A stretch of DNA of 64,000 nucleotides from positions 1,920,001-1,984,000 of the forward strand of contig CAVSBL010000002.1 of NCBI GenBank assembly GCA_963726255.1. The letters run 5' to 3'. The DNA comes from Candidatus Bathyarchaeota archaeon. GTDB lineage: Archaea; Thermoproteota; Bathyarchaeia; 40CM-2-53-6. Within the stretch, counting starts at the first letter, position 1. Each line of letters starts with the position of its first letter. The notes below the pieces were generated by a model, which saw only the letters and a list, made by a program, of their open reading frames with translations, was not told the origin of the DNA and did no database searches. Positions 45,047 to 63,408 of this stretch are shown here, in pieces. The position numbers were made by a program, and so were the translations under genes.

Positions 45047-45173
45047 GGGTCCGTAGCTCAGCCAGGTAGAGCGGCGGATCGGGCGCGAGCCGAAGCTCTT
45101 AGCAACCTGAGGGATACCCGAAGGTCGAGAGCCATCAAAGGCCGACAGGGTTCAAATCCCTCCGGACCCGCCA
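45047..45173 (+). tRNA. tRNA-Lys(CTT) with three BHB introns (30/31, 37/38, 51/52); CCA encoded
   Basis: Removing 45078-45094, 45102-45115 and 45130-45148 gives a 77-nt cloverleaf GGGTCCGTAGCTCAGCCAGGTAGAGCGGCGGGCTCTTAACCCGAAGGTCGAGGGTTCAAATCCCTCCGGACCCGCCA; TTTAAT TATA box at about 45012. Confidence 0.92.
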
Positions 45174-47261: not shown

Positions 47262-47303
47262 TGAACCCACGATATTGGTGGGTTCGTATCCCACCGGCCC
47301 CAC
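47262..47303 (+). repeat. tRNA-3'-end-derived att-like site, copy 1
   Basis: TGAACCCAC-GATATTG-GTGGGTTCGTATCCCACCGGCCCCAC: T-arm plus acceptor 3' strand, with no 5' tRNA half upstream. Confidence 0.85.
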
Positions 47304-47335
47304 AATTGTTCGCTATGAGAGATAATTCATTGGCC

Positions 47336-47602
47336 TCAAAGGTACGCTGTTTCGCGTCTAGCGATTTTGAAAACGAGAATTTCATCTTTTGTCAGTGTTG
47401 CGTACAGGATTCTATAGTCGCCAACTCTGACCCTGTAGGCATTTGGTGCTCCTCTGAGTTTTCTGCAACCTGCGGGATAAGGCGTTCGGGAGAGTTCGGA
47501 TATCTTCTCTTCGAGCCGCCTTCTTACGTCTGAGGAGGTTTCCCGAAGAGCTTTCGCTGCCTTGCGTGACAGAAAGACCCTGAACGCTTGCGGGTCCTTG
47601 AT
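47336..47602 (-). CDS. relE: RelE/ParE-family toxin lacking a canonical start codon (not in ORF track)
   Basis: FRVFLSRKAAKAL...PYPAGCRKLRGAPNAYRVRVGDYRILY...IARRETAYL. Open frame from an upstream TAA at 47603-47605, with no ATG/GTG/TTG before the domain. Confidence 0.8.
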   Translation of the reverse strand: MKDPQAFRVFLSRKAAKALRETSSDVRRRLEEKISELSRTPYPAGCRKLRGAPNAYRVRVGDYRILYATLTKDEILVFKIARRETAYL

Positions 47603-47766
47603 TTAAGCGGCCTGAAAGTGACAGTCCTGCCTTCGCGATGTTCCTTCATCGCTTCCTCAAGCGCCTTCTTATCGTCAGCTGTCATTTCTTCCCCGAGTAC
47701 CTCTTCTATTGCTTCAAGCCTTTCCCTAATGAGATGAAGCTCCTTTTCGAGAATTAGCTTCGACAT
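47524..47766 (-). CDS. Putative RelB-like antitoxin
   Basis: EEMTADDKKALEEAMKEHREGRTV archaeal antitoxin pattern; overlaps relE; TTTAAA box about 27 nt upstream. Confidence 0.75.
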   Translation of the reverse strand: MSKLILEKELHLIRERLEAIEEVLGEEMTADDKKALEEAMKEHREGRTVTFRPLKSRTRKRSGSFCHARQRKLFGKPPQT

Positions 47767-47885
47767 GGCAACTTAACAATCCGGCTCCCGTCTTTAAATC
47801 GTTCTCCTCAAGTGCCAAACCAGACAGCGCACCCACGGGTTGTTTGATTTCCGTTACTAGCCGTCTAGTGGTGGAAGAAGTTGTC

Positions 47886-47928
47886 TGAACCCACTATGTC
47901 GTGGGTTCGTATCCCACCGGCCCCACCA
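47886..47928 (+). repeat. tRNA-3'-end-derived att-like site, copy 2 (adjacent to the integrase)
   Basis: TGAACCCAC-TATGTC-GTGGGTTCGTATCCCACCGGCCCCACCA; 26-nt core identical to copy 1. Confidence 0.88.
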
Positions 47929-47989: not shown

Positions 47990-49489
47990 TTGCCGTACAA
48001 AGGCCTTGATGCACTGAAGGTGAGGATTGACGACCCTACCGTCCGAGCGTGGGCGGACAAGCTCAAACCCAAGTCACACACAAAACTGCACTCGTTCATT
48101 CTGTTCTGGGAGTGGGCGAAGAAAAGGAAGGAAGAAGACCCTAAGACCGGGAAGATGCGGCGAGTGGGCTATTGGGCCACAGCTCACGAGATGCTTGCCG
48201 ACCATTGGCGATGCATGCAGTCCAAGCAAGCCGAACGACCCTACAAGCACCTTGAGATCGTCAAGAAATACTTGAAGAGCAAAGGTACAAGCCCGAGTGA
48301 CCGCAAGATTGCTCTGAGCTCCATTCGGGCTTTCTACCGCGCTCACAAGCGACCATTGCAGGAGTTAGACAGCACGGAGTGGGAGGACGTTTTCGAACCA
48401 ACAGCGGTTGATTTGGAGCGGAAAAGGGAGCTAACACGCCCTCTCACGACGGCGGAGGTAGCCATGCTAGTTCGCGCCGCCAAGATGCCCTACAAAGCAG
48501 TTTTCCTAGTAATGTTTCAAGGAGCTATGGACGCGGCCGCCTTAGAGCAGTTTAGTGGCAGTCTCTGGCATGACAAGGACAACTTTGACGTGAAAGATCT
48601 CGACCGACTTGGCCCAACCAAGATTGGAGGTTTGATTCGGACGAAGACTATGAGTCGCCAGACAGCGTGCGGAGGCGACATCGACGTTTACTACACTTTC
48701 CTTAGCGAAGATGGAAAGCGCCACCTGAAGCAGTGGTTCGAGGAGAGGCGCGAAATGTTGCAACAGGCAGGGTTGACCGATTCGCCGTATCTTTTCCTGA
48801 ACTGGCGGCGCGGCGGACGGCAGAAATTCCATTCCGATCTCGCGCCGGTCAGCGGAAATACCATTGGTAAGACGGTTACAGGTCTAATCAAGAGACTCGG
48901 TCTCGTTCATCCACCTGAGAAGGCAAAGCGGTCTTCCCGGGTCAGATATTATTTCCACGGCCATGAGCTGAGAGACTGCTTCAAGAGCCAATGCTCGCCC
49001 CTCGGGGTAAGTGAGATTGCCAGCGAGTTCTTCATGGGGCACAATATTGATCGGCTTGGTTACAATAAGTCACCCTACAGCGACGAAGGCTTCAACTTTT
49101 TCCGTGGAGAATACAAGAAAGTGATGCAGAGCCTCGAGATCATTTCCTATCCACCAACTGCGGAGGGTAAGTTCCAACGCAAAGAGACTCTAGCTGAGAT
49201 TAATCGTCAAAACCTCCTGCTCAACAAGGTTCCGCGAAAGGTGGTTGACGGATACACTGTCGAGCAGTTAGCATCAATGACGGTCGAGGAAATGCGACGG
49301 TTGATACGGACGGGCGGGAAGGACACTCAGTCAGACACGGCGACGGACGGAAACGGCTGGGAGTCGGGGCAGCAGAAGGTCGTAACGGCCACAGTGCTGC
49401 GAGAGTGGATAGAACGCGGCTGGCGCTACGTAGACACCATTCCATCTACGGGCGAGGTCATCATCCGCTACCCGGAGAGTTCTTCGTAG
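47990..49489 (+). CDS. Tyrosine recombinase/integrase with C-terminal extensions
   Basis: LSSIRAFY core-binding helix; RTKT; HGHELRD; FMGH; GY. Box I reads GAMDAAAL (Asp at the usual Arg position). Confidence 0.88.
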   Translation: MPYKGLDALKVRIDDPTVRAWADKLKPKSHTKLHSFILFWEWAKKRKEEDPKTGKMRRVGYWATAHEMLADHWRCMQSKQAERPYKHLEIVKKYLKSKGTSPSDRKIALSSIRAFYRAHKRPLQELDSTEWEDVFEPTAVDLERKRELTRPLTTAEVAMLVRAAKMPYKAVFLVMFQGAMDAAALEQFSGSLWHDKDNFDVKDLDRLGPTKIGGLIRTKTMSRQTACGGDIDVYYTFLSEDGKRHLKQWFEERREMLQQAGLTDSPYLFLNWRRGGRQKFHSDLAPVSGNTIGKTVTGLIKRLGLVHPPEKAKRSSRVRYYFHGHELRDCFKSQCSPLGVSEIASEFFMGHNIDRLGYNKSPYSDEGFNFFRGEYKKVMQSLEIISYPPTAEGKFQRKETLAEINRQNLLLNKVPRKVVDGYTVEQLASMTVEEMRRLIRTGGKDTQSDTATDGNGWESGQQKVVTATVLREWIERGWRYVDTIPSTGEVIIRYPESSS

Positions 49490-49659
49490 ACGAGGTCGTT
49501 CCAGCCCTCCAGCTTTGCGCGGAGCACGGCCAGCGGGAGTTCATCCGGCTCGTCCAGCACTCTTTGAACCAGCCTGCTAGTTGGAGCTAGTCGACCCTGC
49601 GTTTGTAGTCCGCGGAGAAACGCCTTGTAAGGTCGCAGATCGACCATATCCTCGGGCAA
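49468..49659 (-). CDS. Small hypothetical protein
   Basis: 63 aa, directly downstream of the 85-aa gene; LxxEPDEL motif. Confidence 0.6.
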   Translation of the reverse strand: MPEDMVDLRPYKAFLRGLQTQGRLAPTSRLVQRVLDEPDELPLAVLRAKLEGWNDLVYEELSG

Positions 49660-49668
49660 CGTGCGACA

Positions 49669-49926
49669 CTACTGCTTCTTCTCGTCTGGCTCATGGAAAG
49701 GCTTGGTCCGGATGTCGTCCTTGATGAAGCTCTTCGCGGCCTCGTCCATGACCTTTGTGCGGATGAGTTCACTCATGCTTTCTTGAGTGAGCTTGCCGAG
49801 GTCTCCGAGTCCGACAATGTCTGCCGGAGAGTAACCCGCGAACATCAGATGATACTTGTTTATCTGCGCGAGAGTCTTTGTCTTGCTCGGCTGCTTTTCT
49901 TGCTCCGGGTCCATCGGCTCTGTCAC
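49669..49926 (-). CDS. Small protein homologous to the integrase C-terminal domain
   Basis: TLAQIN...LGKLTQESMSELIRT aligns with integrase TLAEIN...LASMTVEEMRRLIRT. Confidence 0.7.
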   Translation of the reverse strand: MTEPMDPEQEKQPSKTKTLAQINKYHLMFAGYSPADIVGLGDLGKLTQESMSELIRTKVMDEAAKSFIKDDIRTKPFHEPDEKKQ

Positions 49927-50019
49927 TATCTTGTTGATGCAGACTGGTGTCTTATTTGGGTTTCAAGGGGGCGAGTTTGGACTAGCCTGTTACCTTGAAA
50001 ACTGAATGGGGGTGGCAGT

Positions 50020-51936: not shown

Positions 51937-51990
51937 GATTTTGACAAACTTGGACCGAATATTGTCCTAGTCATTTCGCTTTAAAAACAT
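51937..51990 (+). repeat. 54-bp direct repeat copy A (promoter/operator-like)
   Basis: GATTTTGACAAACTTGGACCGAATATTGTCCTAGTCATTTCGCTTTAAAAACAT; 51/54 identical to copy B. Confidence 0.9.
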
Positions 51991-52006: not shown

Positions 52007-52843
52007 ATGACAATATTAGAGATCGATCGCGGGCCCGTCAAGAGGCTGCGGTTTTTCGGATATCTCGGTGGTAAGCAACGGCTAATCAAAACCATTCTAC
52101 CCCTCATCCCTAAGCACTCTCGATATGTGGAAGTGTTCGGTGGATCCGCAGCGATTCTACTGAACAAGCCTCCAAGCGCTGTCGAGGTTTTCAACGACAT
52201 AGATGCCGAACTAATCAACCTCTTCATGACCGTCCGAGACCATCCCAAACAGTTTGCACGCTATGTCCAAAGCCTGCCATACAGTCGGGAACTGTATGAA
52301 CGTTGGCAACGGCAAATCAAGAACGAGGGCTTACACGGGACCCAGCTTGAACACGCAGCCGAGTTCTACTACCTACTTCGGAGTTCCTTTTTCTGCCATG
52401 TTGAGAAAGGTTGGCGCTTCGCAACCAAAACAGACGAAGCGAGCCGACTCTATAACTGCATTGGTGAAGTTGAAACCATCGCACGGCGATTGCAGAGTGT
52501 TTACATTGATCACTTGGATTTCCGGCGCTGCATCAAGAATTGGGATAGGCCGGACACTTTCTTCTTCCTGGACCCCCCATACTATGGCGCCGTTCCGTAC
52601 CGGAAAGGTGTCCCCGCATTCACCGTCCAGGATCATGAGGACCTAGCATCTCTGCTTCATCACACCAAGGGCAAGTGGCTGCTCACATACAACGACCACC
52701 CGAGAGTTGTGGAGTTGTACGCTGGCGACAGGCGCATAGCAGTTTCCACGGCTTTGAACACGGACAAGATGGCTGCCAACCGCAGGCTTCAGCGGCAACT
52801 AATCATTCTAAAAAATAGTCAGAAAGAAGAAGGGCTTCACTGA
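52007..52843 (+). CDS. Dam-like (D12 class) DNA adenine methyltransferase
   Basis: YLGGK, YVEVFGGS, VFNDID, FLDPPYY, WLLTYND. Confidence 0.92.
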   Translation: MTILEIDRGPVKRLRFFGYLGGKQRLIKTILPLIPKHSRYVEVFGGSAAILLNKPPSAVEVFNDIDAELINLFMTVRDHPKQFARYVQSLPYSRELYERWQRQIKNEGLHGTQLEHAAEFYYLLRSSFFCHVEKGWRFATKTDEASRLYNCIGEVETIARRLQSVYIDHLDFRRCIKNWDRPDTFFFLDPPYYGAVPYRKGVPAFTVQDHEDLASLLHHTKGKWLLTYNDHPRVVELYAGDRRIAVSTALNTDKMAANRRLQRQLIILKNSQKEEGLH

Positions 52844-52856
52844 GGAAGGATATGGC

Positions 52857-53156
52857 ATGATCACCTTAGAGCTGAGCAAGAGGACCTTGCAATGGCTTGT
52901 TGATTGCCTGGAAGCCACTGTGCCCACGGTCTGCCGAGGATGTGGAAGAGAGATAATCCGCTGCCCCCTCTGCGGCGATTGGACATTGTACTACGCGAAC
53001 CCCGATTGCAGGTACGGCGGCTTGTCGGTTTCCGACATGCTAAAAACGCCATTCCACATTCACATTGGGGAGTCTTCTTCTTTCTTCTCCCTTAGGAGGG
53101 GTAAGAGAATCCACTCACACCACCCTCTGAAATCCTCAACATGCCACGGATTTTGA
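52857..53156 (+). CDS. Hypothetical zinc-finger protein
   Basis: CRGCG...CPLCG; GAGG SD-like sequence upstream. Confidence 0.55.
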   Translation: MITLELSKRTLQWLVDCLEATVPTVCRGCGREIIRCPLCGDWTLYYANPDCRYGGLSVSDMLKTPFHIHIGESSSFFSLRRGKRIHSHHPLKSSTCHGF

Positions 53157-53202
53157 CAATCTCGGACCGAATATTGTCCTAGTCATTTCGCTTTAAAAGC
53201 AT
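53149..53202 (+). repeat. 54-bp direct repeat copy B
   Basis: GATTTTGACAATCTCGGACCGAATATTGTCCTAGTCATTTCGCTTTAAAAGCAT. Confidence 0.9.
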
Positions 53203-53219
53203 TTGAAACAGCGCTTACG

Positions 53220-53756
53220 GTGAAACCGGTGGCAATAAGGGGAATAACGAAAGGAAAACTGAAGGTAAGCGCATCAGGGATCAAACACGCTCGTCAGTCT
53301 CCTGGGCGAGGCTGGTCAGATTCTACAATCCCAGAGTTGTGGAACTATTGCGACCTCTGGTTAGAGGATAGGAAGTGTGACTACTGGCGAAAGTTCCCCT
53401 GCCCAAAGTGCGGTGCCGACGCCTGGGAGTCGTTGACGGAGAGAGTAACCGACGACAACGGGTTCGGTGAAGAATGGGTTATTGAACAGGGAGGGGAGTG
53501 CGACCACGTCCCCTACGACAAATATGTTTTGGTCACGTGCCAAGCAGTCGATGTGGTCGAAAACGGCAAAACCGTAGCGGTTGTCGAACCCGACTCTTAC
53601 GATCCGGTTGACTGGCTAAGGTACGAGTACAAGAGGAATGGACCAGACGTAGATTACCGCCGTCCGGTCGCTGCCTTTGGCACTCTCTTCCAAGCGACGA
53701 CGGCGACGGTCGTGGAAAGCCGGGCCTTAGCGCTCGCCGAGGACGAGACCAATTGA
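53220..53756 (+). CDS. Hypothetical protein with Zn ribbon
   Basis: CPKCG...ECDH; 4-bp overlap with the ATPase gene. Confidence 0.65.
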   Translation: MKPVAIRGITKGKLKVSASGIKHARQSPGRGWSDSTIPELWNYCDLWLEDRKCDYWRKFPCPKCGADAWESLTERVTDDNGFGEEWVIEQGGECDHVPYDKYVLVTCQAVDVVENGKTVAVVEPDSYDPVDWLRYEYKRNGPDVDYRRPVAAFGTLFQATTATVVESRALALAEDETN

Positions 53757-56227
53757 GTCGCACGAAGGACGCCTCCACGTATTCGGAAATGAACTCGGTC
53801 GGGAGATTTGACGTGGGCTTTGCAGCTTTTGTTGCGTCTATAATATCGATTTTTGTCGTCCTCGTTCTTTTCTCATACACCGAAATCTTGTTTGTACTTC
53901 TTCTCCTCGCTCCTCTTTGGGTGCTTACGGGTTGGGTTGCAAACAGGCACATCGCACAGCACAACAAGCAGCCGAACGCTCAAACAATCATGGTTTGTCC
54001 CGGCTGTACTGTCGAAGAGAAATGGAAGACACTCGGTTACAGCATGATTGTTGCAGCGGTTCCAAACTACATCGCAAGCGCAGTCCTGACGGAAATCGAA
54101 GCGGTCAGAGTCCCACTCACAGGATGGCCCATCACCTTATCGCCCCTATTTCATGTGTTCACAGCGCTGTTCTTGATCTTGGCGATATTTACCATCCTTA
54201 AGGCGCGAAGTTACTCACATGACCTTGCGGAGTTCAAGACCGCCTACGCCTCCTCTACCACTTATCAAACATTAGAAATGGCAAAAGATGGGCGTGTCGT
54301 ACTCGGTCATGAATTTCGTTATGCCATACAAACTTCAGTACCGACCGCTGCTGATTCACTGCACCCTCTGCCTGGTGAGATTAGGACTAGAACCGTTAGA
54401 CAATGGATTGGAAAAGACGGTCCCTTCACAGTGGATCTGGAAAAGGAGAGAAACCCGCACTGTGTGGTCTTCGGCAGCTCGGGGACAGGGAAAAGCGAAA
54501 CCGTCAGAGCCCTCGTCCTCCGTTACTGGTTAGCGAAGCAGATTCCCTCTCTGATTATAGATTGGCAAGGAGAATACGCTTCTTTCGTGAGGAAGATTGG
54601 AGGAGTGGTTTGGTCGGTTCCGCAGGAATTCACTGTGAACCCACTTCGTCTGGAAGGATTCAGACCATCACAACGAGCTGCTGAAATCGAAGAATCGCTG
54701 ATTGTCAACCTAGAACTTACTGCTTTACAGGCATCCGAGGTGCGGAAAATTGTCTCTGAAGCCTACCGAGAAGCCGGCATAGAGGAAGAAGACAAGGAAA
54801 CATGGAAACTTCCTCCTCCAGTATGGGGCGACATCATCGAGATAATGAGCGCCAAACTGCGAAGCGGGCAATACACGGGCGAAAAAATCCAATGGATCGA
54901 TTGGGCTATTCTCAGGCTGCAACGGGCTGACCGTATCTTCGGCGAAGAAACGCAAGAATTCTTTGGCGTGGCATTGAAGGTGCCGACGTGCATCGACCTA
55001 TCAGGTCTCTCGGGCGCAGATGTCGCCAAGGCTCTGGTCACCTACACAATTTTCCAGCGCATATATGACCAGTTCGATATTAGAGGATTTAGCGTTCTCA
55101 AGCTCCTAGTTGTTTTGGAGGAAGCACACCAAATCCTGCAAAGCCAAATTGGAAAGACGAATAGTACTCAAGAGTCATTGATTGTCAGAATCATAAGACT
55201 CGGTCGAAAATATGGTTACGGAGTAATCCTTGCCAGTCATCAACCCACAGACATACCACAAGCAGCAATCTCGAATGCGGCAACCATAGTCGCCATGATG
55301 CTGGATGAACCACAACAGGTCAACTATGTAAGAAGATTCGTCAACCTCTCAAAACCTGAGAGAGAGATATACGCTACCCTACCGCAAGGCGGGGCATTCA
55401 TCAAACACCTGGGCGAGCCGCACTCGCACCTCGTCAAGACCCAGATGGTGTCTGTCGATGAAATTCAGTTCTCAAGGTCACTCACCGAAAAAATACGCAA
55501 TGAAGTACTGAAGCCTCCCACGCTGCAGCCGCTATCAATGAGGTCAACAGACCCTCCTGCAACCGAGACTACACAAGCACGTTCAGTTCGTGTATCCTCC
55601 AGTCCATCTCTGAATGAAGTGGACGAGGCTCTGACTATGCTCCAGAAAAGAATCCAGCATTTTCTGGAGGGCGGTCCAACGACAATGAAAAAACTGCTTA
55701 AAGCATTTCCTAATGTAGCTTACCGAGAATTGTTGACGTACCTCAGTGATTTGGAGAATCATGGCTTTGTCCAAGAAGAAAAAGTTGCAAACCTTGAAGG
55801 AAAGGGGACAGTCTTCTATGCTGCGCTCAAGTCGGAATGGCTTCAAAGCGAAAGCATAGAACACAGAGCAATGCTTCTGATGATTTCAGAAGCTCTGAAC
55901 CACCTCCGCCCGGTCCCGTATATGCGATCCGAAGCGAATGCGCCGGACTTGGGTTTGGAACTTACAAATCCAAAGATTGCCATAGAAGTTGAAACCGGGC
56001 GGAAAAAACTAACATTCGCTGAACTTGACAAGTGGGCGACAGATGTCAAAATCCGTAACATTAAACTCGGTTACAGAGATATACTAGTTGTCGTGCCAAA
56101 TGCATCTGTCGAAGCTCACTACAAAGAGGCGTGCGAAAAAACCGGATTAGAACTGACAACAATGGCGAAACTCGGAGCCAAACCATGTGACAGCGACAAA
56201 GGAGACGCGGAAAGCAACGCAGGTTAA
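53753..56227 (+). CDS. Membrane-anchored VirD4/VirB4/HerA-like ATPase with C-terminal wHTH and PD-(D/E)XK-like domain
   Basis: N-terminal TMs; NPHCVVFGSSGTGKS, IIDWQGEY, VLEEAH, GRKYG, SHQP; C-terminal EH...APDL...IAIEVETG. Confidence 0.85.
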   Translation: MSRTKDASTYSEMNSVGRFDVGFAAFVASIISIFVVLVLFSYTEILFVLLLLAPLWVLTGWVANRHIAQHNKQPNAQTIMVCPGCTVEEKWKTLGYSMIVAAVPNYIASAVLTEIEAVRVPLTGWPITLSPLFHVFTALFLILAIFTILKARSYSHDLAEFKTAYASSTTYQTLEMAKDGRVVLGHEFRYAIQTSVPTAADSLHPLPGEIRTRTVRQWIGKDGPFTVDLEKERNPHCVVFGSSGTGKSETVRALVLRYWLAKQIPSLIIDWQGEYASFVRKIGGVVWSVPQEFTVNPLRLEGFRPSQRAAEIEESLIVNLELTALQASEVRKIVSEAYREAGIEEEDKETWKLPPPVWGDIIEIMSAKLRSGQYTGEKIQWIDWAILRLQRADRIFGEETQEFFGVALKVPTCIDLSGLSGADVAKALVTYTIFQRIYDQFDIRGFSVLKLLVVLEEAHQILQSQIGKTNSTQESLIVRIIRLGRKYGYGVILASHQPTDIPQAAISNAATIVAMMLDEPQQVNYVRRFVNLSKPEREIYATLPQGGAFIKHLGEPHSHLVKTQMVSVDEIQFSRSLTEKIRNEVLKPPTLQPLSMRSTDPPATETTQARSVRVSSSPSLNEVDEALTMLQKRIQHFLEGGPTTMKKLLKAFPNVAYRELLTYLSDLENHGFVQEEKVANLEGKGTVFYAALKSEWLQSESIEHRAMLLMISEALNHLRPVPYMRSEANAPDLGLELTNPKIAIEVETGRKKLTFAELDKWATDVKIRNIKLGYRDILVVVPNASVEAHYKEACEKTGLELTTMAKLGAKPCDSDKGDAESNAG

Positions 56228-56746
56228 TTCCAGCCAATCTGAGGTCGTGGGTGTTGATTGCAGACCAGGTAGGTTTCCTGTGCGCCTGTCCCCTTGCCCC
56301 TGCATGATCCCCTCTTAATAGTGATTGACAACTTGCACTCTTTCTCCTCGGTTAATTGACCTCGTGTCCGTGCAATGCCTCTCCGGCAGTTGGCAGCCTC
56401 CCCGAGGGCATCTCTTTCTTAGCTTTCCGCTGCGAGCATGTCCAGGTCGCTTTTCGCTCTTTGTCTATGGCAGCTTACCGAGATGCTTGGAAGATGGGGC
56501 AGCGCCCCAGCCCCTCAACGCGGAGAGACGCCCACGGTACCCTGATGGGGGTGGCGACAAACCAACATTCTGCCAGGACAACTGGCGATTAAGTTCCAGT
56601 TCAAGTTGGGGGATTTCTCCCGCCTCATGCTGAGCAACTGCTGGGGCTGCTTGAGAAGGCGGCGGAAGAACAGAGGTACAACTAATCGAATATCTTTCCC
56701 GCCTCTATACACAGCGCTATGCGCTCTTTCAAGAAAACGCTGCATC

Positions 56747-57007
56747 TCATGATTCAGATGTCTTATCAGAAGACCAGTCGGAAAAGACATGAGGTTTACC
56801 TTCTGTTGTGAACTTTCCTTCCGTCCCCTTGATTCCTCCCCCCTTCAAGATTCCCTCATACTGTTCGTGCTCACATTTGTCACACTTGAATTGTCTGTAT
56901 TGTTGCCTAGCGCCGCTAGCTTCACCTTTGTCAAACGTTTGCCCTGTAGGATTTAGATGCCCTTCTCTGCATTTCGGGCAAAGGTCACCTGCTGGCAACT
57001 TGACCAC
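56747..57007 (-). CDS. Zinc-ribbon protein
   Basis: CPKC...CDKC. Confidence 0.65.
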   Translation of the reverse strand: MVKLPAGDLCPKCREGHLNPTGQTFDKGEASGARQQYRQFKCDKCEHEQYEGILKGGGIKGTEGKFTTEGKPHVFSDWSSDKTSES

Positions 57008-57083
57008 TAGATTGGAGAACCTTGCTTGTCGAATCCAAATCGGAGAATACCGGACGGCTGGACAATCCCTTTTCGTGTTCTTC

Positions 57084-57668
57084 TCAGTTGTTATGTGTGA
57101 AGATGTTGGTTACAGGTTTATGCCTCGGGTAGGGTGGAAGAAGGGCTGGGAATGTATCCGGCTTGCCTTTCAGGGTTAGCGATGCCCTCACGGCACTTTC
57201 TATTCGGCCACCAATGATACGCTCCACAGTTTTCGTTAATCGTTCCTGCCAGTCTGGCATATATGCGGAGAGCAGGTTCTTGAAGAGCTTGTTGTGTCGC
57301 CGCACCTTTAAGTGAAGAAGCTCGTGACAGATCACATATTCTACGAACTGCTTGGGCATGTTCAGAAGCTTTTCATTCAACGTAATGTTCCGCGACGGCG
57401 AGCAGGAAGCCCACTTGTTTCTTAGTCTTCTTACCTGAACGTTCCCAGTTTTGACGCCAAGCTTGTTTTTCCACGACTGAACCATTTGTCGGATTTCTCG
57501 GTTGGTCAGGCAACCGGTTAGGCCGTTTGTGTTGGTTTCCGAGACGGCTGACTCCAGGAGCTCTCTTGATTCCGCGGTCAAGGATTCAGGGAGAGCTATT
57601 GTCAGCACCTCAGGTGATAAGTAGTAACCGATTGAGTTTCGGGTTTCTTTCCTGAGCCTAATCTTCAT
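57084..57668 (-). CDS. M48/YgjP (DUF45)-family metallopeptidase-like protein
   Basis: KWASCS, YVICHELLHL, HN..F, YMPDW; ATGA overlap with hsdR. Confidence 0.88.
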   Translation of the reverse strand: MKIRLRKETRNSIGYYLSPEVLTIALPESLTAESRELLESAVSETNTNGLTGCLTNREIRQMVQSWKNKLGVKTGNVQVRRLRNKWASCSPSRNITLNEKLLNMPKQFVEYVICHELLHLKVRRHNKLFKNLLSAYMPDWQERLTKTVERIIGGRIESAVRASLTLKGKPDTFPALLPPYPRHKPVTNIFTHNN

Positions 57669-60553
57669 GGCCCGATCATCCTCCTGTGAACGTCGAGAAT
57701 TGAGTTGACTACTTCCGGGAGTTTTTCCGGTGAAGCCTTCCCAAGCAATAGCTTGTAGACTCGCATTCTCACGTCCATCTCCTTCTTCTTGTCCAAGGGC
57801 CAAGTCTTGTTGCTTTCAAGGAGCTTGAAGATTTGTCGTGACAAGGCTGTGATGTCATTTGGGATTTTGTATTCTCTGAGCGACCAGAACACGCCGTATT
57901 CCCCTGTGCTTAGCTTCAGCTGAATCCTTTCTGCTTCGGACTTTGCAATTCTGTCGGCGATCTCTAGAAGATGATTGAGAGCCTCTTTACTTTCGATTTG
58001 TCTTTCTTCGAATTTCCTGATTACCTGCTCAGCTATGACTCCGATCGAAAACAGATAAGGCTCTCGCTTCGCTCCAGTCTGGACGTGTATCACTATGCTT
58101 CTGTAGAGGTTCACAACCTTGGCTTTTTCAGGGATTCTTTCACCCTGAAGTTTCTCAACGACTTTGTCATCAATCCTGTAGGCCGGGAGGCTTGCAATTG
58201 CTGACTGCAGATCGACGTGCTTCCTAATCAGTTCCTTAGTCTTGTTTCTTAGGTCTCTGTAGAGATCCGCCTCTTTCGGTCGGAACATATTCTGGATTAT
58301 CTTGTATAGCTCGCCGAGCGCTGCATAGTCCTCAATGTAATCACGCAAAAACACGTCAGGAGAGAGAATTTCGAACAGCGCTTCAATTTGCTTGAACAGC
58401 TTCGAGAACTTCTCTCTTTCCTTCGGATCAACGAATCTCTCTGCAATTGCACCGAGCGTCTTGTCGTCAATGCCCCCTTTTATGAGCGCTAGGTAATCGC
58501 GTCCTTGCTTCATTAGTTCGACGAATCTCTCTTTGAGCACGGTGAGGTCTGTGAGAGCGCCTTCGACAGTCTCTGAGTCAAAGCTAAGTGCTCTTTTGAG
58601 GTCTTCGAGGACTCCGACAAAATCTACTATCAGACCCGCCGATTTCTTTTGGCCCGCTTCGTCATCCAATGGCCTGTTTACTCTTGCTATCGCTTGGAGA
58701 AGTGTGTGGTCCTTGAATGGCTTGTCCAGATACATGCAGTAGAGAATCGGTGCGTCAAAACCCGTAAGCAGCTTTTGAGTTACTATGAGAATCTTGGGAA
58801 GCTTGTCTGCAGACTTGAAGCTGGTTCTGACGTTTTCCTCCTGCTCCTCGGACAGGTGAAAGGTCTTGAGTAACTGTGAATCCCTCTGGTCCGGGGTGAA
58901 GACGACGGCAGAACAATCCGGCGGAAGATACTTGTCCAGCGCACGCTTGTAGAGCGCACAGCCCTCTCTGTCAACGGCGACGATGAAGGCTTTCAATCCC
59001 AACGGTTCTACGTATTGCCTGAAATGGTTAGCCATGAACTTCGCAACTTTGTCGACCCTGTCTTCCGACTTGAGAAAGTTCTTGAGCTTGACTGCTCTGT
59101 CAAGCACCTTGTCAAGTTCTTCGATGCTTGCGATGCCTTCCTTTTCAACAAGCGCGAAGAACTCTTTTTCGAGCAGTTCCTTGTCGACGCGCATGTCTTG
59201 AGGCGCTAATGCGTAATAGAGCGGCACTGTCGTGCGGTCTTGTATCGATTCCCTGATGGAATATTTGTCCAAATATCCTTGCGGGTCATGCTTGCCGAAC
59301 ACAACAAAGGTTCCTTTGCCGATGTTGCTTCTGTCGATCGGCGTTCCCGTGAAACCGAAATAGGAGGCACGAGGCATCGCTGCACGCATGTAAGTTCCTA
59401 GATTGCCTTCCTGAGACCGGTGCGCCTCGTCGACCAGTACGATTATGTTCTTTCGGGTGTTGATGTCTTTCTCGATGCCTTCGAATTTCTGTATCGTTGT
59501 TACAATCAGTCCTCTGTAGTCGCTCTTGAGCAAGTCGCTGAGATGTTCCTTGTTGTCGGCCAGTTTACAGTTTGGAAAACCGAACGAGACCAGGTTCTTC
59601 CACATTTGGCTCTCTAGTTCGGTCCTATCAATGACCACCAGGATGGTTGGCTTCTCAAGGGAACTCTGCTTTCTGAGCCTGTGCGCCGCCACAATCATGG
59701 TAAATGTCTTGCCTGAACCCTGAGTATGCCAAACGAGGCCTGAGTCAAGTCCCTCAGAAATCACGCGGCTGACTATTTTCTCAACAGCTCTCATCTGATG
59801 TTGATCGAGCACGAATTTGTAGAGCTCTTCATCCTTCGTGAAGAAGAAAGTATAGTCCTCTAGCAATCGAAGAATCCTGGATTTGTCGAAGAAGTCTTTG
59901 ACAAGGTTCTCTAGGTTTACATCATCGCCGAGTTTCCATTTGTGAATGTTCCTCTCATCCAGATTCCAAGTAGGTCCAAACTTAAGTTGAATCCCATCGC
60001 TCAAGGCGAAAAGCTGGACTACTTTCATGAGGTCAGGAATTTCCTCGTGATATCGTTGGACCTGTGCCTTCGCTTCCCTAATGGGATCCGAAACAGCAGG
60101 TGACTTCGTTTCGATGAGTGTCAGAGGGATGCCGTTGACGAAAAGTGTGATGTCGGCGCGGTCTGTCTCTATGTCAGAGAACTCAAATTCCTTTGTAGCA
60201 TGGAAATCGTTGTTCTCAGGATGGTCGAAATCGATGAGTTTGATGTTGAGTTCCCTTCTTTCCTTCTCGATATAAATCGTCTTCTCTCCTCGAAGATACT
60301 GCAGGAATTCCTGGTTGCCCCCAAGATTCGCGCGTACATTCTTCAGCTTCTTGACGACTTCGTCAACCTGCTCGTCTGTAGTTATGACGCCCTTGTTGAG
60401 TTCCTTGATCTTCTGACTCAATATAGGCAGGAGAAAGTGTTCGGTGATATTGTCGCGGAGTTCGAGGCACCTGTCTGGCTCTAAGTATTTCCAACCTATC
60501 TCGTCTAGGTACTTAATGATTGGATCCCGTACGGCTTTGAATTCAAGAGGCAT
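57665..60553 (-). CDS. hsdR: Type I restriction enzyme R subunit
   Basis: RADITLFVNGIPL.LIETK, WHTQGSGKT, VDEAHRS, FTGTP, LLTGFDAP, QAIARVNR. Confidence 0.96.
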   Translation of the reverse strand: MPLEFKAVRDPIIKYLDEIGWKYLEPDRCLELRDNITEHFLLPILSQKIKELNKGVITTDEQVDEVVKKLKNVRANLGGNQEFLQYLRGEKTIYIEKERRELNIKLIDFDHPENNDFHATKEFEFSDIETDRADITLFVNGIPLTLIETKSPAVSDPIREAKAQVQRYHEEIPDLMKVVQLFALSDGIQLKFGPTWNLDERNIHKWKLGDDVNLENLVKDFFDKSRILRLLEDYTFFFTKDEELYKFVLDQHQMRAVEKIVSRVISEGLDSGLVWHTQGSGKTFTMIVAAHRLRKQSSLEKPTILVVIDRTELESQMWKNLVSFGFPNCKLADNKEHLSDLLKSDYRGLIVTTIQKFEGIEKDINTRKNIIVLVDEAHRSQEGNLGTYMRAAMPRASYFGFTGTPIDRSNIGKGTFVVFGKHDPQGYLDKYSIRESIQDRTTVPLYYALAPQDMRVDKELLEKEFFALVEKEGIASIEELDKVLDRAVKLKNFLKSEDRVDKVAKFMANHFRQYVEPLGLKAFIVAVDREGCALYKRALDKYLPPDCSAVVFTPDQRDSQLLKTFHLSEEQEENVRTSFKSADKLPKILIVTQKLLTGFDAPILYCMYLDKPFKDHTLLQAIARVNRPLDDEAGQKKSAGLIVDFVGVLEDLKRALSFDSETVEGALTDLTVLKERFVELMKQGRDYLALIKGGIDDKTLGAIAERFVDPKEREKFSKLFKQIEALFEILSPDVFLRDYIEDYAALGELYKIIQNMFRPKEADLYRDLRNKTKELIRKHVDLQSAIASLPAYRIDDKVVEKLQGERIPEKAKVVNLYRSIVIHVQTGAKREPYLFSIGVIAEQVIRKFEERQIESKEALNHLLEIADRIAKSEAERIQLKLSTGEYGVFWSLREYKIPNDITALSRQIFKLLESNKTWPLDKKKEMDVRMRVYKLLLGKASPEKLPEVVNSILDVHRRMIGP

Positions 60554-61877
60554 ACTGAGCCCCCAAATCAAAATCCTTGAGTCGAATTATCCCAATCGCA
60601 AGCTTCCGGAGCATCGTGTTGAACAGTTGCTGAAGAATGCTTTTCCGGTTTTCTTCAACCTTGATTTTTCTGTCTAGAGACATCAACAAGTTAACTATTT
60701 CCTGTTGCTCGGGGATTGGCGGCAATGGAATCTGAAAGGTCCTTAGTCTTGTGGCGCTGATATTTGATTGACCGACTGCCCTGCTTGCGAGACCCTTGAG
60801 TCTTCGTTGGCTATTGGCCCAGTTCAGATAGTAGTTTACAAACTGTGGAAGGACTTGCTTTGGGTCGGTTTGTAGTCTTATCAGATAGGATGCGAAAACG
60901 AGCTCGCCTTCAAGGTCGAAAAACGATGTCTTCCCAACCAAATCAATGCTGTTCGTTCTATTGAACAATAGATCGCCTTTCTTCAACCGAAATCGGCGAA
61001 ATGTTTCCTCATCAAGATCTACATATTGCACATCGTCTAGCACCAAATCTCCATCTTCGAGGTTGTTCATCCGAAGTATAGGATACTGGCCTTCTTTACT
61101 TCCCTTCAAGGATAGACCATATTGAGCGACGGTAAGGACTTCGCTCAGAGTTGTAGGTTTCCATTTCTCAGGTACCGCGCCAATTTCTCCCCCTTCTTTG
61201 TACTTGGTAGGGTAAACGCCGCTAGTCAATAGCTTGTGCATAAGCGATTTCTTCAGATTTCTGATGGCCAGGAGCAATAGATCTTGCTTGTATACTGCCT
61301 GCTGGATCTTGGAAAGGACAAGAGAGATACTTTGTTGCTCATGAAGAGGCGGTTTCGGCAACACAAACGACTGAAGCCTACCCTGCGAGAGGTTAGGTAT
61401 TGTTGTCTTGATCCCTTCACCTGCATAGAGTCCGAGTTGAAGAAAAGCAGTCTGCATCCAGTACATGTAATATTCTGGACAAATGTCATCCCTCCGCTTG
61501 CGCAGACGATGAATGTGGTTCTGATGGGCACAGACTTCTAACTCGCCCCTCCAGATCGCCGTTCGACCAACTTCGCCCCCTTCGCAAACAAGAATGTCAT
61601 TTGGCTCAAGCCGTAATCTCGAAAGTTCCTGAGCAGTAAAATGCATATGATCCAGTGTTGAGAGGTCAATGCGGCCCCAAAGGACGTTCAGCGTGCGAAG
61701 AAAGGGATACTGCGGTTGTCTTGCGCGGCCCGCTGGCGACATAGCTTTTCCTTGTTGAATGTCAAATGCGTCGCCGAGCGCAACAGTTTCCCAATCTTCC
61801 GGTATTGGGCCGACTTCGCTATCCTTTACTCCCTCTGTTCTAGCTGCCAGAACTTCCATGCTCAATGTAACCTCCAT
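60543..61877 (-). CDS. hsdS: Type I restriction-modification specificity subunit
   Basis: Two TRDs with IPEDW/VPEKW and PPLHEQQ/PPIPEQQ conserved blocks. Confidence 0.94.
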   Translation of the reverse strand: MEVTLSMEVLAARTEGVKDSEVGPIPEDWETVALGDAFDIQQGKAMSPAGRARQPQYPFLRTLNVLWGRIDLSTLDHMHFTAQELSRLRLEPNDILVCEGGEVGRTAIWRGELEVCAHQNHIHRLRKRRDDICPEYYMYWMQTAFLQLGLYAGEGIKTTIPNLSQGRLQSFVLPKPPLHEQQSISLVLSKIQQAVYKQDLLLLAIRNLKKSLMHKLLTSGVYPTKYKEGGEIGAVPEKWKPTTLSEVLTVAQYGLSLKGSKEGQYPILRMNNLEDGDLVLDDVQYVDLDEETFRRFRLKKGDLLFNRTNSIDLVGKTSFFDLEGELVFASYLIRLQTDPKQVLPQFVNYYLNWANSQRRLKGLASRAVGQSNISATRLRTFQIPLPPIPEQQEIVNLLMSLDRKIKVEENRKSILQQLFNTMLRKLAIGIIRLKDFDLGAQYAS

Positions 61878-63408
61878 AATTCATCTTTCGAAGAATCGAA
61901 TCCAACTCAACATCAATCTCCCTTCTCTCTTCTTCGGCTTGAGTGAGCTCGGCGATGGCCTCGTCTATCGGGAGATACTCCTCTTCGCTGTCAACTGCAA
62001 CGTACTTAGCAGGCCCCAGATTGTAATCATTCTTGGTGGCCTGTTCGTTAGTGATGACTTTGCTGATTTTTTCCATGTCTTTCCAATTCGCGAAAACGTC
62101 CAGGATTCTATCGATGCATTTGCCAGTAAGATAGTTCTTAGGTCCTTCCTTGATGAACTCTTTAGAAGCATTGACCAGTAGAATCTGACCCTTGTGTTTC
62201 TTGGCTTTGTTAATGACTACAATGTTTCCTGGAGCGGTCGTGTTATAGAACAGGTTCTCGGGGAGGAGTATGACGGCCTCCAGGAAATCCTTGTCCACGA
62301 ATTCCTTTCTGATTTGCTTCTCCTTGTCAGTTCCGGCTTTTCCACTGCCTCTTGACACTGTTCCCGTATCTATGACTACAACAAGTCTGCCGCCATCTTC
62401 AAGAGAGGCGAACATGTGTTGGATCCACCCCCAGTCTGCAGAGCTCTTGGGTGGCATGCCGAAAAGGAACCTGTTATAGGAGTCGCTCTTGTAGAAATCA
62501 TCATCATAACCAGGTTGCCTCCACATGGGATTTGCAGTAACCTTGTGGAATGTCTTGAGAGCATTTTCGTGCAAGAATTTTGGATTCTTCAGCGTGTCGC
62601 CGACTCTTATCTCTCCCTCCATATCGTGAATGAACATGTTCATCCTTGCCATGGCATATGTTACAGGATTGAGCTCTTGACCGAAGAGACGCAAGGGTAC
62701 CTTCTCGGAACCGTTCCTCTCTTTGAGAACTAGCTGACATTTTATGAGCAGCCCTCCAGACCCGCATGCGGGGTCGTAAATCTCCTCGCCTTCCTTTGGA
62801 TCTGCAAGATGGGCCATCAGCCAGCCCACTTCTTTCGGCGTGTAGAACTCTCCGGCGCTTGAACCGGAACCCTCCGCAAATTTTCTCAAGAGATACTCGT
62901 AGGCCCTACCAAGTATGTCGGGCTCGACATCTTTCAGTCCCAACCTGTGGCGATTCAGGATTTCGATTAAGCTGCTTATTCTTCCGTCATCGAGAATTCT
63001 TTCCCCGCTGATTGTAGCATTGAAGTCTACGACATCGACGACGCCTTGTAGTTTGGGATTCTCCTTTGCGATTAGGCGCAGGGTCTTGCTGAGTTCCTCG
63101 CCGATGTTCTGCGTGAGCTTTCTGATGTCACGCCAAGTACAATTCGGGGGGAGGTAGAATCGTATGAGATTCCTGTCGTTTTCAATCAGTTCTCTAACGG
63201 CATTCTCGTCTCCAAGTTCAGTTTTGAGTCCACTGATTTCGTCCTCAAACACATCCGACAATCTCTTGAAAAACAGCAGCGGCAGAATGTAATCCTTGAA
63301 TTTAGGGGCATCCACCGGTCCCCTGATACTGCAGGCTGCATCCCACAACCACTGCTCCAGTTCTCGCAGGTTTAGCTTACCAACAGCCAGTTTTTCTTGC
63401 ATGCTCAT
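61840..63408 (-). CDS. hsdM: Type I restriction-modification methyltransferase subunit
   Basis: LWDAAC..RG, GEFYTP, YDPACGSGG, motif IV variant NPMW, LFYNT. Confidence 0.95.
   Translation of the reverse strand: MSMQEKLAVGKLNLRELEQWLWDAACSIRGPVDAPKFKDYILPLLFFKRLSDVFEDEISGLKTELGDENAVRELIENDRNLIRFYLPPNCTWRDIRKLTQNIGEELSKTLRLIAKENPKLQGVVDVVDFNATISGERILDDGRISSLIEILNRHRLGLKDVEPDILGRAYEYLLRKFAEGSGSSAGEFYTPKEVGWLMAHLADPKEGEEIYDPACGSGGLLIKCQLVLKERNGSEKVPLRLFGQELNPVTYAMARMNMFIHDMEGEIRVGDTLKNPKFLHENALKTFHKVTANPMWRQPGYDDDFYKSDSYNRFLFGMPPKSSADWGWIQHMFASLEDGGRLVVVIDTGTVSRGSGKAGTDKEKQIRKEFVDKDFLEAVILLPENLFYNTTAPGNIVVINKAKKHKGQILLVNASKEFIKEGPKNYLTGKCIDRILDVFANWKDMEKISKVITNEQATKNDYNLGPAKYVAVDSEEEYLPIDEAIAELTQAEEERREIDVELDSILRKMNYGGYIEHGSSGS

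Follow-up and report, generated by a model that had tools for sequence, protein, structure and literature searches.

A 64,000-nt stretch of the genome of Candidatus Bathyarchaeota archaeon (assembly GCA_963726255.1, contig CAVSBL010000002.1, positions 1,920,001 to 1,984,000 of the forward strand; hereafter "the window") encodes a divergent tyrosine integrase flanked at its 3′ end by two small genes. As we read the locus, the integrase belongs to a putative integrated element associated with a tRNA end; it carries a C-terminal tail made of a helical module, here called A, and a beta-alpha-beta-beta module, here called B. The two small genes form a conserved cassette. One encodes an acidic protein of 63 amino acids (aa), orf63; the product of the other, hereafter the small protein, is a paralogue of module A that exists on its own and ends in a charged tail, in many cases a very basic one. 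We give about even credence to the view that these two proteins are accessory factors of the integrase, setting the direction or the timing of recombination either in the manner of a recombination directionality factor (RDF) or as inhibitors. The original prediction for this locus, made from the DNA letters, described the small gene as a stand-alone copy of the integrase's own C-terminal domain that acts as a decoy. The features concerned are the following, in window coordinates:

47990-49489, + strand: integrase gene, 499 aa, divergent tyrosine integrase
49166-49321, + strand: first module (A) of the integrase tail, four short helices at aa ~393-444
49367-49474, + strand: second module (B) of the integrase tail, beta-alpha-beta-beta fold at aa ~460-495
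49468-49659, − strand: orf63, TTG start, acidic 63-aa protein
49669-49926, − strand: gene of the small module-A protein, 85 aa if translated from the GTG at 49926, 81 aa if from the ATG at 49914
49950-49957, − strand: candidate TATA-like element of archaeal type, 36-43 nt ahead of the ATG of the small gene

The integrase gene and the small gene lie where the original prediction had placed them and are convergent as it stated, with 180 nt between them. The TTG start of orf63 is found 9 nt past the TAG stop of the small gene, and its 3′ end overlaps the 3′ end of the integrase gene by 22 nt; this conserved partner gene had been missed. The 81-aa form of the small protein corresponds to entry P0001 of the protein collection.

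A module shared by the integrase tail and the small protein

The 499-aa protein matches PHROG 1 (phrog_1, integrase) at E 4.6e-6. It has no Pfam family at E<=1, so that the gathering score of PF00589 is not reached, and no NCBIfam match; PF00589 is precomputed in 4 of 18 database homologues. Its AlphaFold (AF2) model, with a mean predicted local distance difference test score (pLDDT) of 79.6, was matched by Foldseek to IntI (2a3v), XerA (5hxy and 4a8e) and Cre with a probability of 1.00 and E values down to 1.1e-5, 36 matches being obtained at E<=0.001. In an alignment of 15 homologues, H323/H325, R328, H351 and Y358 are fully or almost fully conserved, their catalytic roles being assigned by eye from motif position. 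By its modelled fold and by its H-x-x-R, H and Y motifs, which it shares with Cre, XerA/XerCD, IntI and lambda Int, the protein is a tyrosine recombinase. It differs from these canonical enzymes in one respect and may differ in another. The catalytic tyrosine and one further helix are followed by an extra tail of ~115 residues. The possible second difference is that no arginine is seen by eye at the usual box-I position (residues ~168-190, window 48490-48560) in the same alignment. R217, which is invariant in the family, can be mentioned as a candidate substitute for the box-I arginine, which the recombinase core found at loci L038 and L039 does have.

The tail is conserved in the integrase family and consists of module A, a disordered linker and module B. 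In the AF2 model, the helices of module A occupy residues 397-441 (pLDDT 74-80), and the strands and helix of module B residues 462-493 (pLDDT ~82). The segment that the original prediction had compared with the small protein thus does lie beyond the invariant Tyr358, within an extension, as had been proposed. A hidden Markov model (HMM) of module B made in this analysis matches many integrases. In a second, shorter family of tyrosine recombinases (L026, 14695-15804), module B is found without module A, right at the C-terminal end, which indicates that modules A and B can travel separately. In the integrase of L024, a different tail, SHOCT-like by eye, comes after module A.

The relation between the tail and the small protein was established at two levels. 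BLASTP aligned residues 7-57 of the small protein with residues 389-441 of the integrase (18 of 54 identical, E 1e-4 as a single comparison), slightly extending the 15 identities in 44 positions counted by hand in the original prediction. The comparison of profiles by hhalign, using 8 homologues of the small protein and 15 of the integrase, gave a probability of 97.1% and E 7.2e-11 over 48 columns, with residues 13-60 of the small protein set against 395-444 of the integrase. In distant members of the integrase family, module A is far closer to the small protein than is that of the window integrase (AGYS and GDL motifs). The resemblance is therefore due to homology and not to chance.

This homology extends to module A; module B is not shared, hence the small protein corresponds to part of the integrase's C-terminal extension and not to the whole domain. 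The small family has instead a long C-terminal helix and a charged tail of its own, conserved within the family and absent from integrases. The AF2 model of the small protein reaches a pLDDT of 91 over residues 11-55 and places helices at 8-25, 30-34 and 44-69. The small protein is 35% identical to module A of its neighbour, compared with 30-41% to module A of unrelated loci. Because cognate identity is no higher than non-cognate identity except at L038 and L039, the small gene is, judged from these comparisons, an old paralogue of module A and not a recent copy of its neighbour, and the claim that it duplicates the integrase's "own" domain was not borne out. In this test for a recent copy or a co-evolving partner of module A of the adjacent integrase, the recent copy was accordingly rejected.

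The small protein has 7 homologues at 53-75% identity. A profile search of 1.84 billion representatives returned 127 clusters (50% identity) at E<=0.001, which were classed with HMMs made in this analysis. Module-A-only proteins of at most 140 aa account for 88 of the 127, and longer ones for another 9; integrase-length proteins with A then B make up 10, proteins with A and B of 200-399 aa 4, and those under 200 aa 14, while 2 were unmatched by the module-A HMMs. Stand-alone A+B proteins were considered as a separate class and rejected, many of them starting at the recombinase GH box as gene fragments do. A search of viral contigs with the small family gave no relative.

Between pairs drawn from five loci, the ratio of non-synonymous to synonymous substitution rates (dN/dS) is 0.16-0.42 for the small gene, and on this measure the small open reading frame (ORF) is a real gene under purifying selection. 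The alternative that it is a decaying fragment of the 3′ end of a former integrase gene, with no function today, has some material to draw on: integrase fragments are present in the same genome, including an 84-aa ORF with modules A and B (L009), and many of the stand-alone A+B entries in the databases are the GH-box fragments mentioned above. Such an origin is nevertheless highly improbable, and the evidence of selection and conservation has for the most part refuted it, since the small family keeps its own C-terminal helix and tail, since the small gene shows the dN/dS values given above, since 88 clusters hold module A alone, and since the gene has a fixed partnership, and natural fusions, with orf63.

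This partner is conserved in 5/5 loci of the convergent type, in the same frame as the small gene. In the window and in L032, L033, L035 and L036, a single TAG and a poorly conserved 9-nt spacer separate the two (window 49660-49671). Pairwise dN/dS between the five loci is 0.02-0.24 for orf63, and the isoelectric point (pI) of the encoded proteins is 4.5-5.3. Searches with orf63 led to 38 database clusters, none of them named and none with a Pfam family, and the Protein Atlas gave leads below 0.9 only. A resemblance to the N-terminal core-binding helices of Xer-type recombinases was tried and rejected (hhalign of the orf63 family against the integrase family, probability 0.3%). Two proteins, P0137 and P0056, are natural fusions in which module A is followed by a basic linker and orf63 (3e-21 and 2.8e-5, respectively). 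These fusions argue that the small protein and orf63 work jointly, and we infer that they probably act together.

Linkage of the cassette to integrases with module A

The small gene was studied at 15 loci (the window, L016, L024, L032-L040, L042, L043 and L048), which are not all independent and represent about six lineages. It is adjoined by orf63 in 14 of them; at L034, where the contig ends 92 nt past the small gene, the start of orf63 is visible and its first 29 codons are all that can be seen. An integrase is adjacent in 12 of the 15, and every one of these 12 integrases carries module A, that of L024 weakly (E 0.014); the co-occurrence with C-terminally extended integrases that the original prediction had anticipated is thus observed. 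Module B is missing from the integrases of L024 and L048. At L038 and L039 the integrase is built on a different recombinase core, which the core HMM does not match, yet modules A and B and the cassette are all present.

The arrangement of the cassette varies in one of its two genes. orf63 is always convergent with the integrase gene and overlaps or abuts its end. The small gene either precedes orf63 and shares its strand, as in the window, or is on the opposite strand, as in L016, L038-L040 and L042, the last of which holds the integrase, orf63 and the small gene. At L048, the integrase and orf63 are accompanied by a 216-aa protein ending in module A (1486-2133, − strand), whose gene has orf63 behind it and faces that of the integrase. 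The additional N-terminal part of this protein, of ~150 residues, has no Pfam family and shows a PD-(D/E)xK-like motif by eye.

Loci were collected in three ways. The first started from integrases and comprised 17 loci from the genome collection, from Nitrososphaerales, Bathyarchaeia and Archaeoglobales metagenome-assembled genomes. Nine of them have an integrase with the tail, 7 with room downstream, and at L015 a partial orf63 is seen at the contig end; in the 8 loci with a tail-less integrase the cassette was not found once. The second sample started from the small protein and comprised 9 loci on metagenome contigs, in 7 of which an adjacent integrase has modules A and B. The third started from 301 genomes of the same class; L042, L043 and L048 come from it. 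Module A occurs in 5 of these genomes, that of the window included, and all 5 are of a single family: besides the window genome, 4 of 43 members of this family have it, while outside the family it is found in 0 of 257. A mobile element would be expected to show such a patchy distribution.

Candidate functions of the cassette

In the proposed mechanism, whatever module A of the integrase engages would also be engaged by its free counterpart; of the two kinds of target considered, DNA at the recombination complex or close to it seems to us likelier than the surface of a protein. Several indirect hints from sequence favour a nucleic-acid role for module A, namely a 205-aa protein (P0050), another DNA-junction enzyme with the module, in which two copies of module A stand in tandem after an Endonuclease VII domain (PF02945, 5.4e-14), the presence of the module in two kinds of recombinase, the pI of 10.3 of the integrase module, and the strongly basic tails of many members of the small family, with a pI of up to 10.8. 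A likeness of module A to the helix-turn-helix (HTH) of LuxR or of sigma-70 region 4, judged by eye, is no more than a possible lead, no Pfam match having reached threshold. The module-A protein of L048 has an HTH_37 match below threshold (E 0.18).

In a more specific form, the small protein and orf63 would be the first RDF of an archaeal integrase and would work by domain mimicry: the free module A, held or released by its acidic partner, would compete with or complement module A of the integrase at the synapse, and the outcome would be the choice between integration and excision. This form is, in our estimate, improbable. The convergent overlap of orf63 and the integrase gene could, speculatively, add antisense or transcriptional interference.

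A number of observations weigh against accessory factors of the integrase. The cassette is optional, being present in 2 of the 7 loci of the integrase-first sample in which a tail-bearing integrase has room downstream (L016 and L024); it is absent beside the tail-bearing integrases of L017, L018, L019, L020 and L022, as well as L044 and L045. At L037, the small gene stands near the contig start beside an ORF that is IS630-like by eye, with neither partner, and at L043 the small gene and orf63 are paired, but the 1.29 kb of downstream sequence at hand shows no recognisable integrase. No match of the small protein or orf63 to an Xis/RDF, regulator, toxin-antitoxin (including toxin or antitoxin homology taken singly) or defence family was obtained in Pfam, NCBIfam, PHROGs or PADLOC. 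The wide VIA-align search with the small protein reached a best Z of 5.2, with rows of basic helix-loop-helix, MerR and ribosomal helices, and is not decisive. The small protein of the window has a pI of 6.1 and, unlike many members of its family, is not basic. Finally, small proteins are no closer to module A of their own integrase than to that of foreign ones, L038 and L039 excepted, so that pairwise co-adaptation is not apparent. In the other searches, Foldseek with the small protein against the PDB and BFVD gave nothing at E<=0.001, sequence-profile searches of the PDB with the family alignments gave nothing significant, and no known family or fold was recovered for module A, module B or orf63 in the sequence and fold searches run.

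The original prediction favoured a decoy, which can be spelled out as one acting on protein: the free module A would occupy a protomer-contact or docking site of the integrase and block or redirect synapsis, as a dominant-negative inhibitor or a directionality switch. In solved structures of tyrosine recombinases such as Cre and lambda Int, a C-terminal segment is exchanged between protomers, and in the window integrase it is module A that follows the catalytic tyrosine. The solid homology between the small protein and module A, and the presence of the cassette beside integrases only where module A is found, also fit a decoy. However, cognate pairs of small protein and integrase are no more alike than non-cognate ones apart from the two loci just excepted, the Endonuclease VII tandem fusion and the common basic tails fit a nucleic-acid role at least as well, and the constant partner orf63 is given no role. 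A protein decoy is on balance unlikely. Prediction of a complex of integrase and small protein returned an ipSAE of 0.00 in both runs, made without controls, and no conclusion is drawn from it.

A further possibility is that the cassette is a regulatory or maintenance pair, of the repressor/anti-repressor or toxin-antitoxin kind, that stands apart from the chemistry of recombination and serves to control the expression of genes of the element or to stabilise the island; its position at the end of the integrase gene would then have transcriptional reasons, and module A would be a common small DNA-binding domain. The two adjoining small genes are indeed reminiscent of toxin-antitoxin pairs, with translational coupling (stop, 9 nt, start) in 5/5 loci of the convergent type, one acidic and one often basic product, and an antisense overlap of orf63 with the 3′ end of the integrase gene. 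In addition, L043 keeps the pair without an integrase, and genes of defence type are part of the island (type I restriction-modification, a Dam-like methylase and a HerA/DndH-like ATPase). However, the toxin-antitoxin arrangement does not hold in L016, L038-L040 and L042, where the small gene and orf63 are divergent, and the lack of toxin-antitoxin, regulator or defence family matches counts against this explanation too. A fusion of the two partners would be unusual for toxin-antitoxin pairs. Moreover, the cassette is confined to integrases with module A, across two recombinase cores and two archaeal lineages, which indicates a link to the integrase protein and not to the locus alone. Such a pair is therefore somewhat unlikely. 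The accessory-factor reading, to which the even credence stated at the outset applies, is the most likely of those considered.

Ahead of the small gene, the TATA-like stretch listed above is all that is conserved; it is present in 3 of the 5 loci aligned, and its identification, made by eye, is tentative. No convincing repeated short DNA motifs, as possible binding sites, were found around the integrase, small gene and orf63, and scans for sigma-70 promoters and terminators, which are ill-suited to archaea, were empty.

The surrounding element and comparison with known systems

Upstream of the integrase gene, the window contains a direct repeat resembling an attachment site (att-like):

47263-47303, + strand: att-like repeat copy 1, resembling the 3′ part of a tRNA (T-arm and acceptor strand)
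47886-47926, + strand: copy 2 of the att-like repeat, 64 nt ahead of the start of the integrase gene

The 41-nt repeat consists of a 26-nt exact direct repeat preceded by a 12-nt near-repeat, for which 0 chance matches are expected. The copies are 623 nt apart, with an 80-aa ORF (47524-47766, − strand) between them. In 4 runs, metagenome contigs either break off or part from the window sequence precisely at the edges of copy 1 (47263 and 47303). A groundwater contig (run X4) seems to join both copies, skipping from 47292 to 47918, with one side of only 28 nt. A third exact copy of the att-like 24-mer lies inverted on the same contig, ~1 Mb away (contig 2, 973590-973613, L001); the two window copies and this inverted one were the only occurrences found, and the right end of the element was not located. 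The window copies could be remnants of tandem integration or the result of an att-mediated rearrangement. A whole tRNA was not called at any of the att-like copies, and Rfam gave a match to a tmRNA/tRNA-like end at 47860-47928, below threshold. ARAGORN called no tRNA anywhere in the window. At 45047-45170, Rfam reports a tRNA match of 124 nt with 31.5 bits, just above gathering and presumably intron-bearing.

Downstream of the cassette, the cargo of the island (52007-63408) is of a kind usual for integrated elements. It includes a D12-class (Dam-like) adenine methylase, a HerA/DndH-like ATPase of 824 aa, the R, S and M subunits of a type I restriction-modification system and a YgjP/SprT-like metallopeptidase. 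The Dam-like methylase gene is flanked by two direct copies of a 54-nt repeat (51937-51990 and 53149-53202; 94% identity), each of which spans the start and the upstream region of a minus-strand ORF.

Other pieces of integrases of this type are found on contig 2 of the same genome. The 84-aa ORF with modules A and B alone (498136-498420; L009, 1537-1791) is 40% identical to the tail (E 7e-15) and looks like a 3′ remnant of an integrase gene. An N-terminal piece of 79 residues, 50% identical, is located at 471506-471739 (L012), and a catalytic-region piece with an internal TAG at 1089247-1089459 (L014), beside another site resembling a tRNA end.

Among known systems, the RDFs or excisionases of bacterial integrases (lambda Xis, L5 gp36 and Tn916 Xis) resemble the cassette in that a small protein is encoded beside the tyrosine integrase of an integrated element and is a plausible controller of direction, and some members of the small family are basic as well. 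They differ in that the small protein of the window is a paralogue of an integrase module and has an acidic partner, and it has no sequence or fold match to Xis/RDF families. To our knowledge, no known RDF is a paralogue of an integrase domain.

In archaea, none of the integrases characterised so far needs an RDF, and none has had one described, according to the portion of a 2021 review that deals with them (PMC8371274), and IntSNJ2 alone is described there as modulated by two small proteins. This integrase of the haloarchaeal pleolipovirus SNJ2, with Orf2 and Orf3, is likened to the present system by description only: both have an archaeal tyrosine integrase and two adjacent small proteins, but the three SNJ2 genes form one operon, while orf63 is convergent with the integrase gene and overlaps it; sharing of a domain with the integrase is not reported in that portion of the review (PMC8371274). 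A limited literature search found no description of the integrase tail or of the cassette, which is not proof that they are unpublished.

For bacterial phages there is a good understanding of how integration and excision are controlled, whereas for archaeal elements there is next to none. A three-gene module of tailed integrase, orf63 and free module A recurs in elements of Nitrososphaerales and Bathyarchaeia and with two recombinase cores, and its analysis defines three protein modules, A, B and orf63, that had no annotation. The small protein and orf63 are good candidates for the first archaeal helpers of integration or excision, and together with the integrase they make up a concrete, cloneable set. 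If it is true that the free module acts through its likeness to a domain of the enzyme, this would be an unusual way of regulating a site-specific recombinase.

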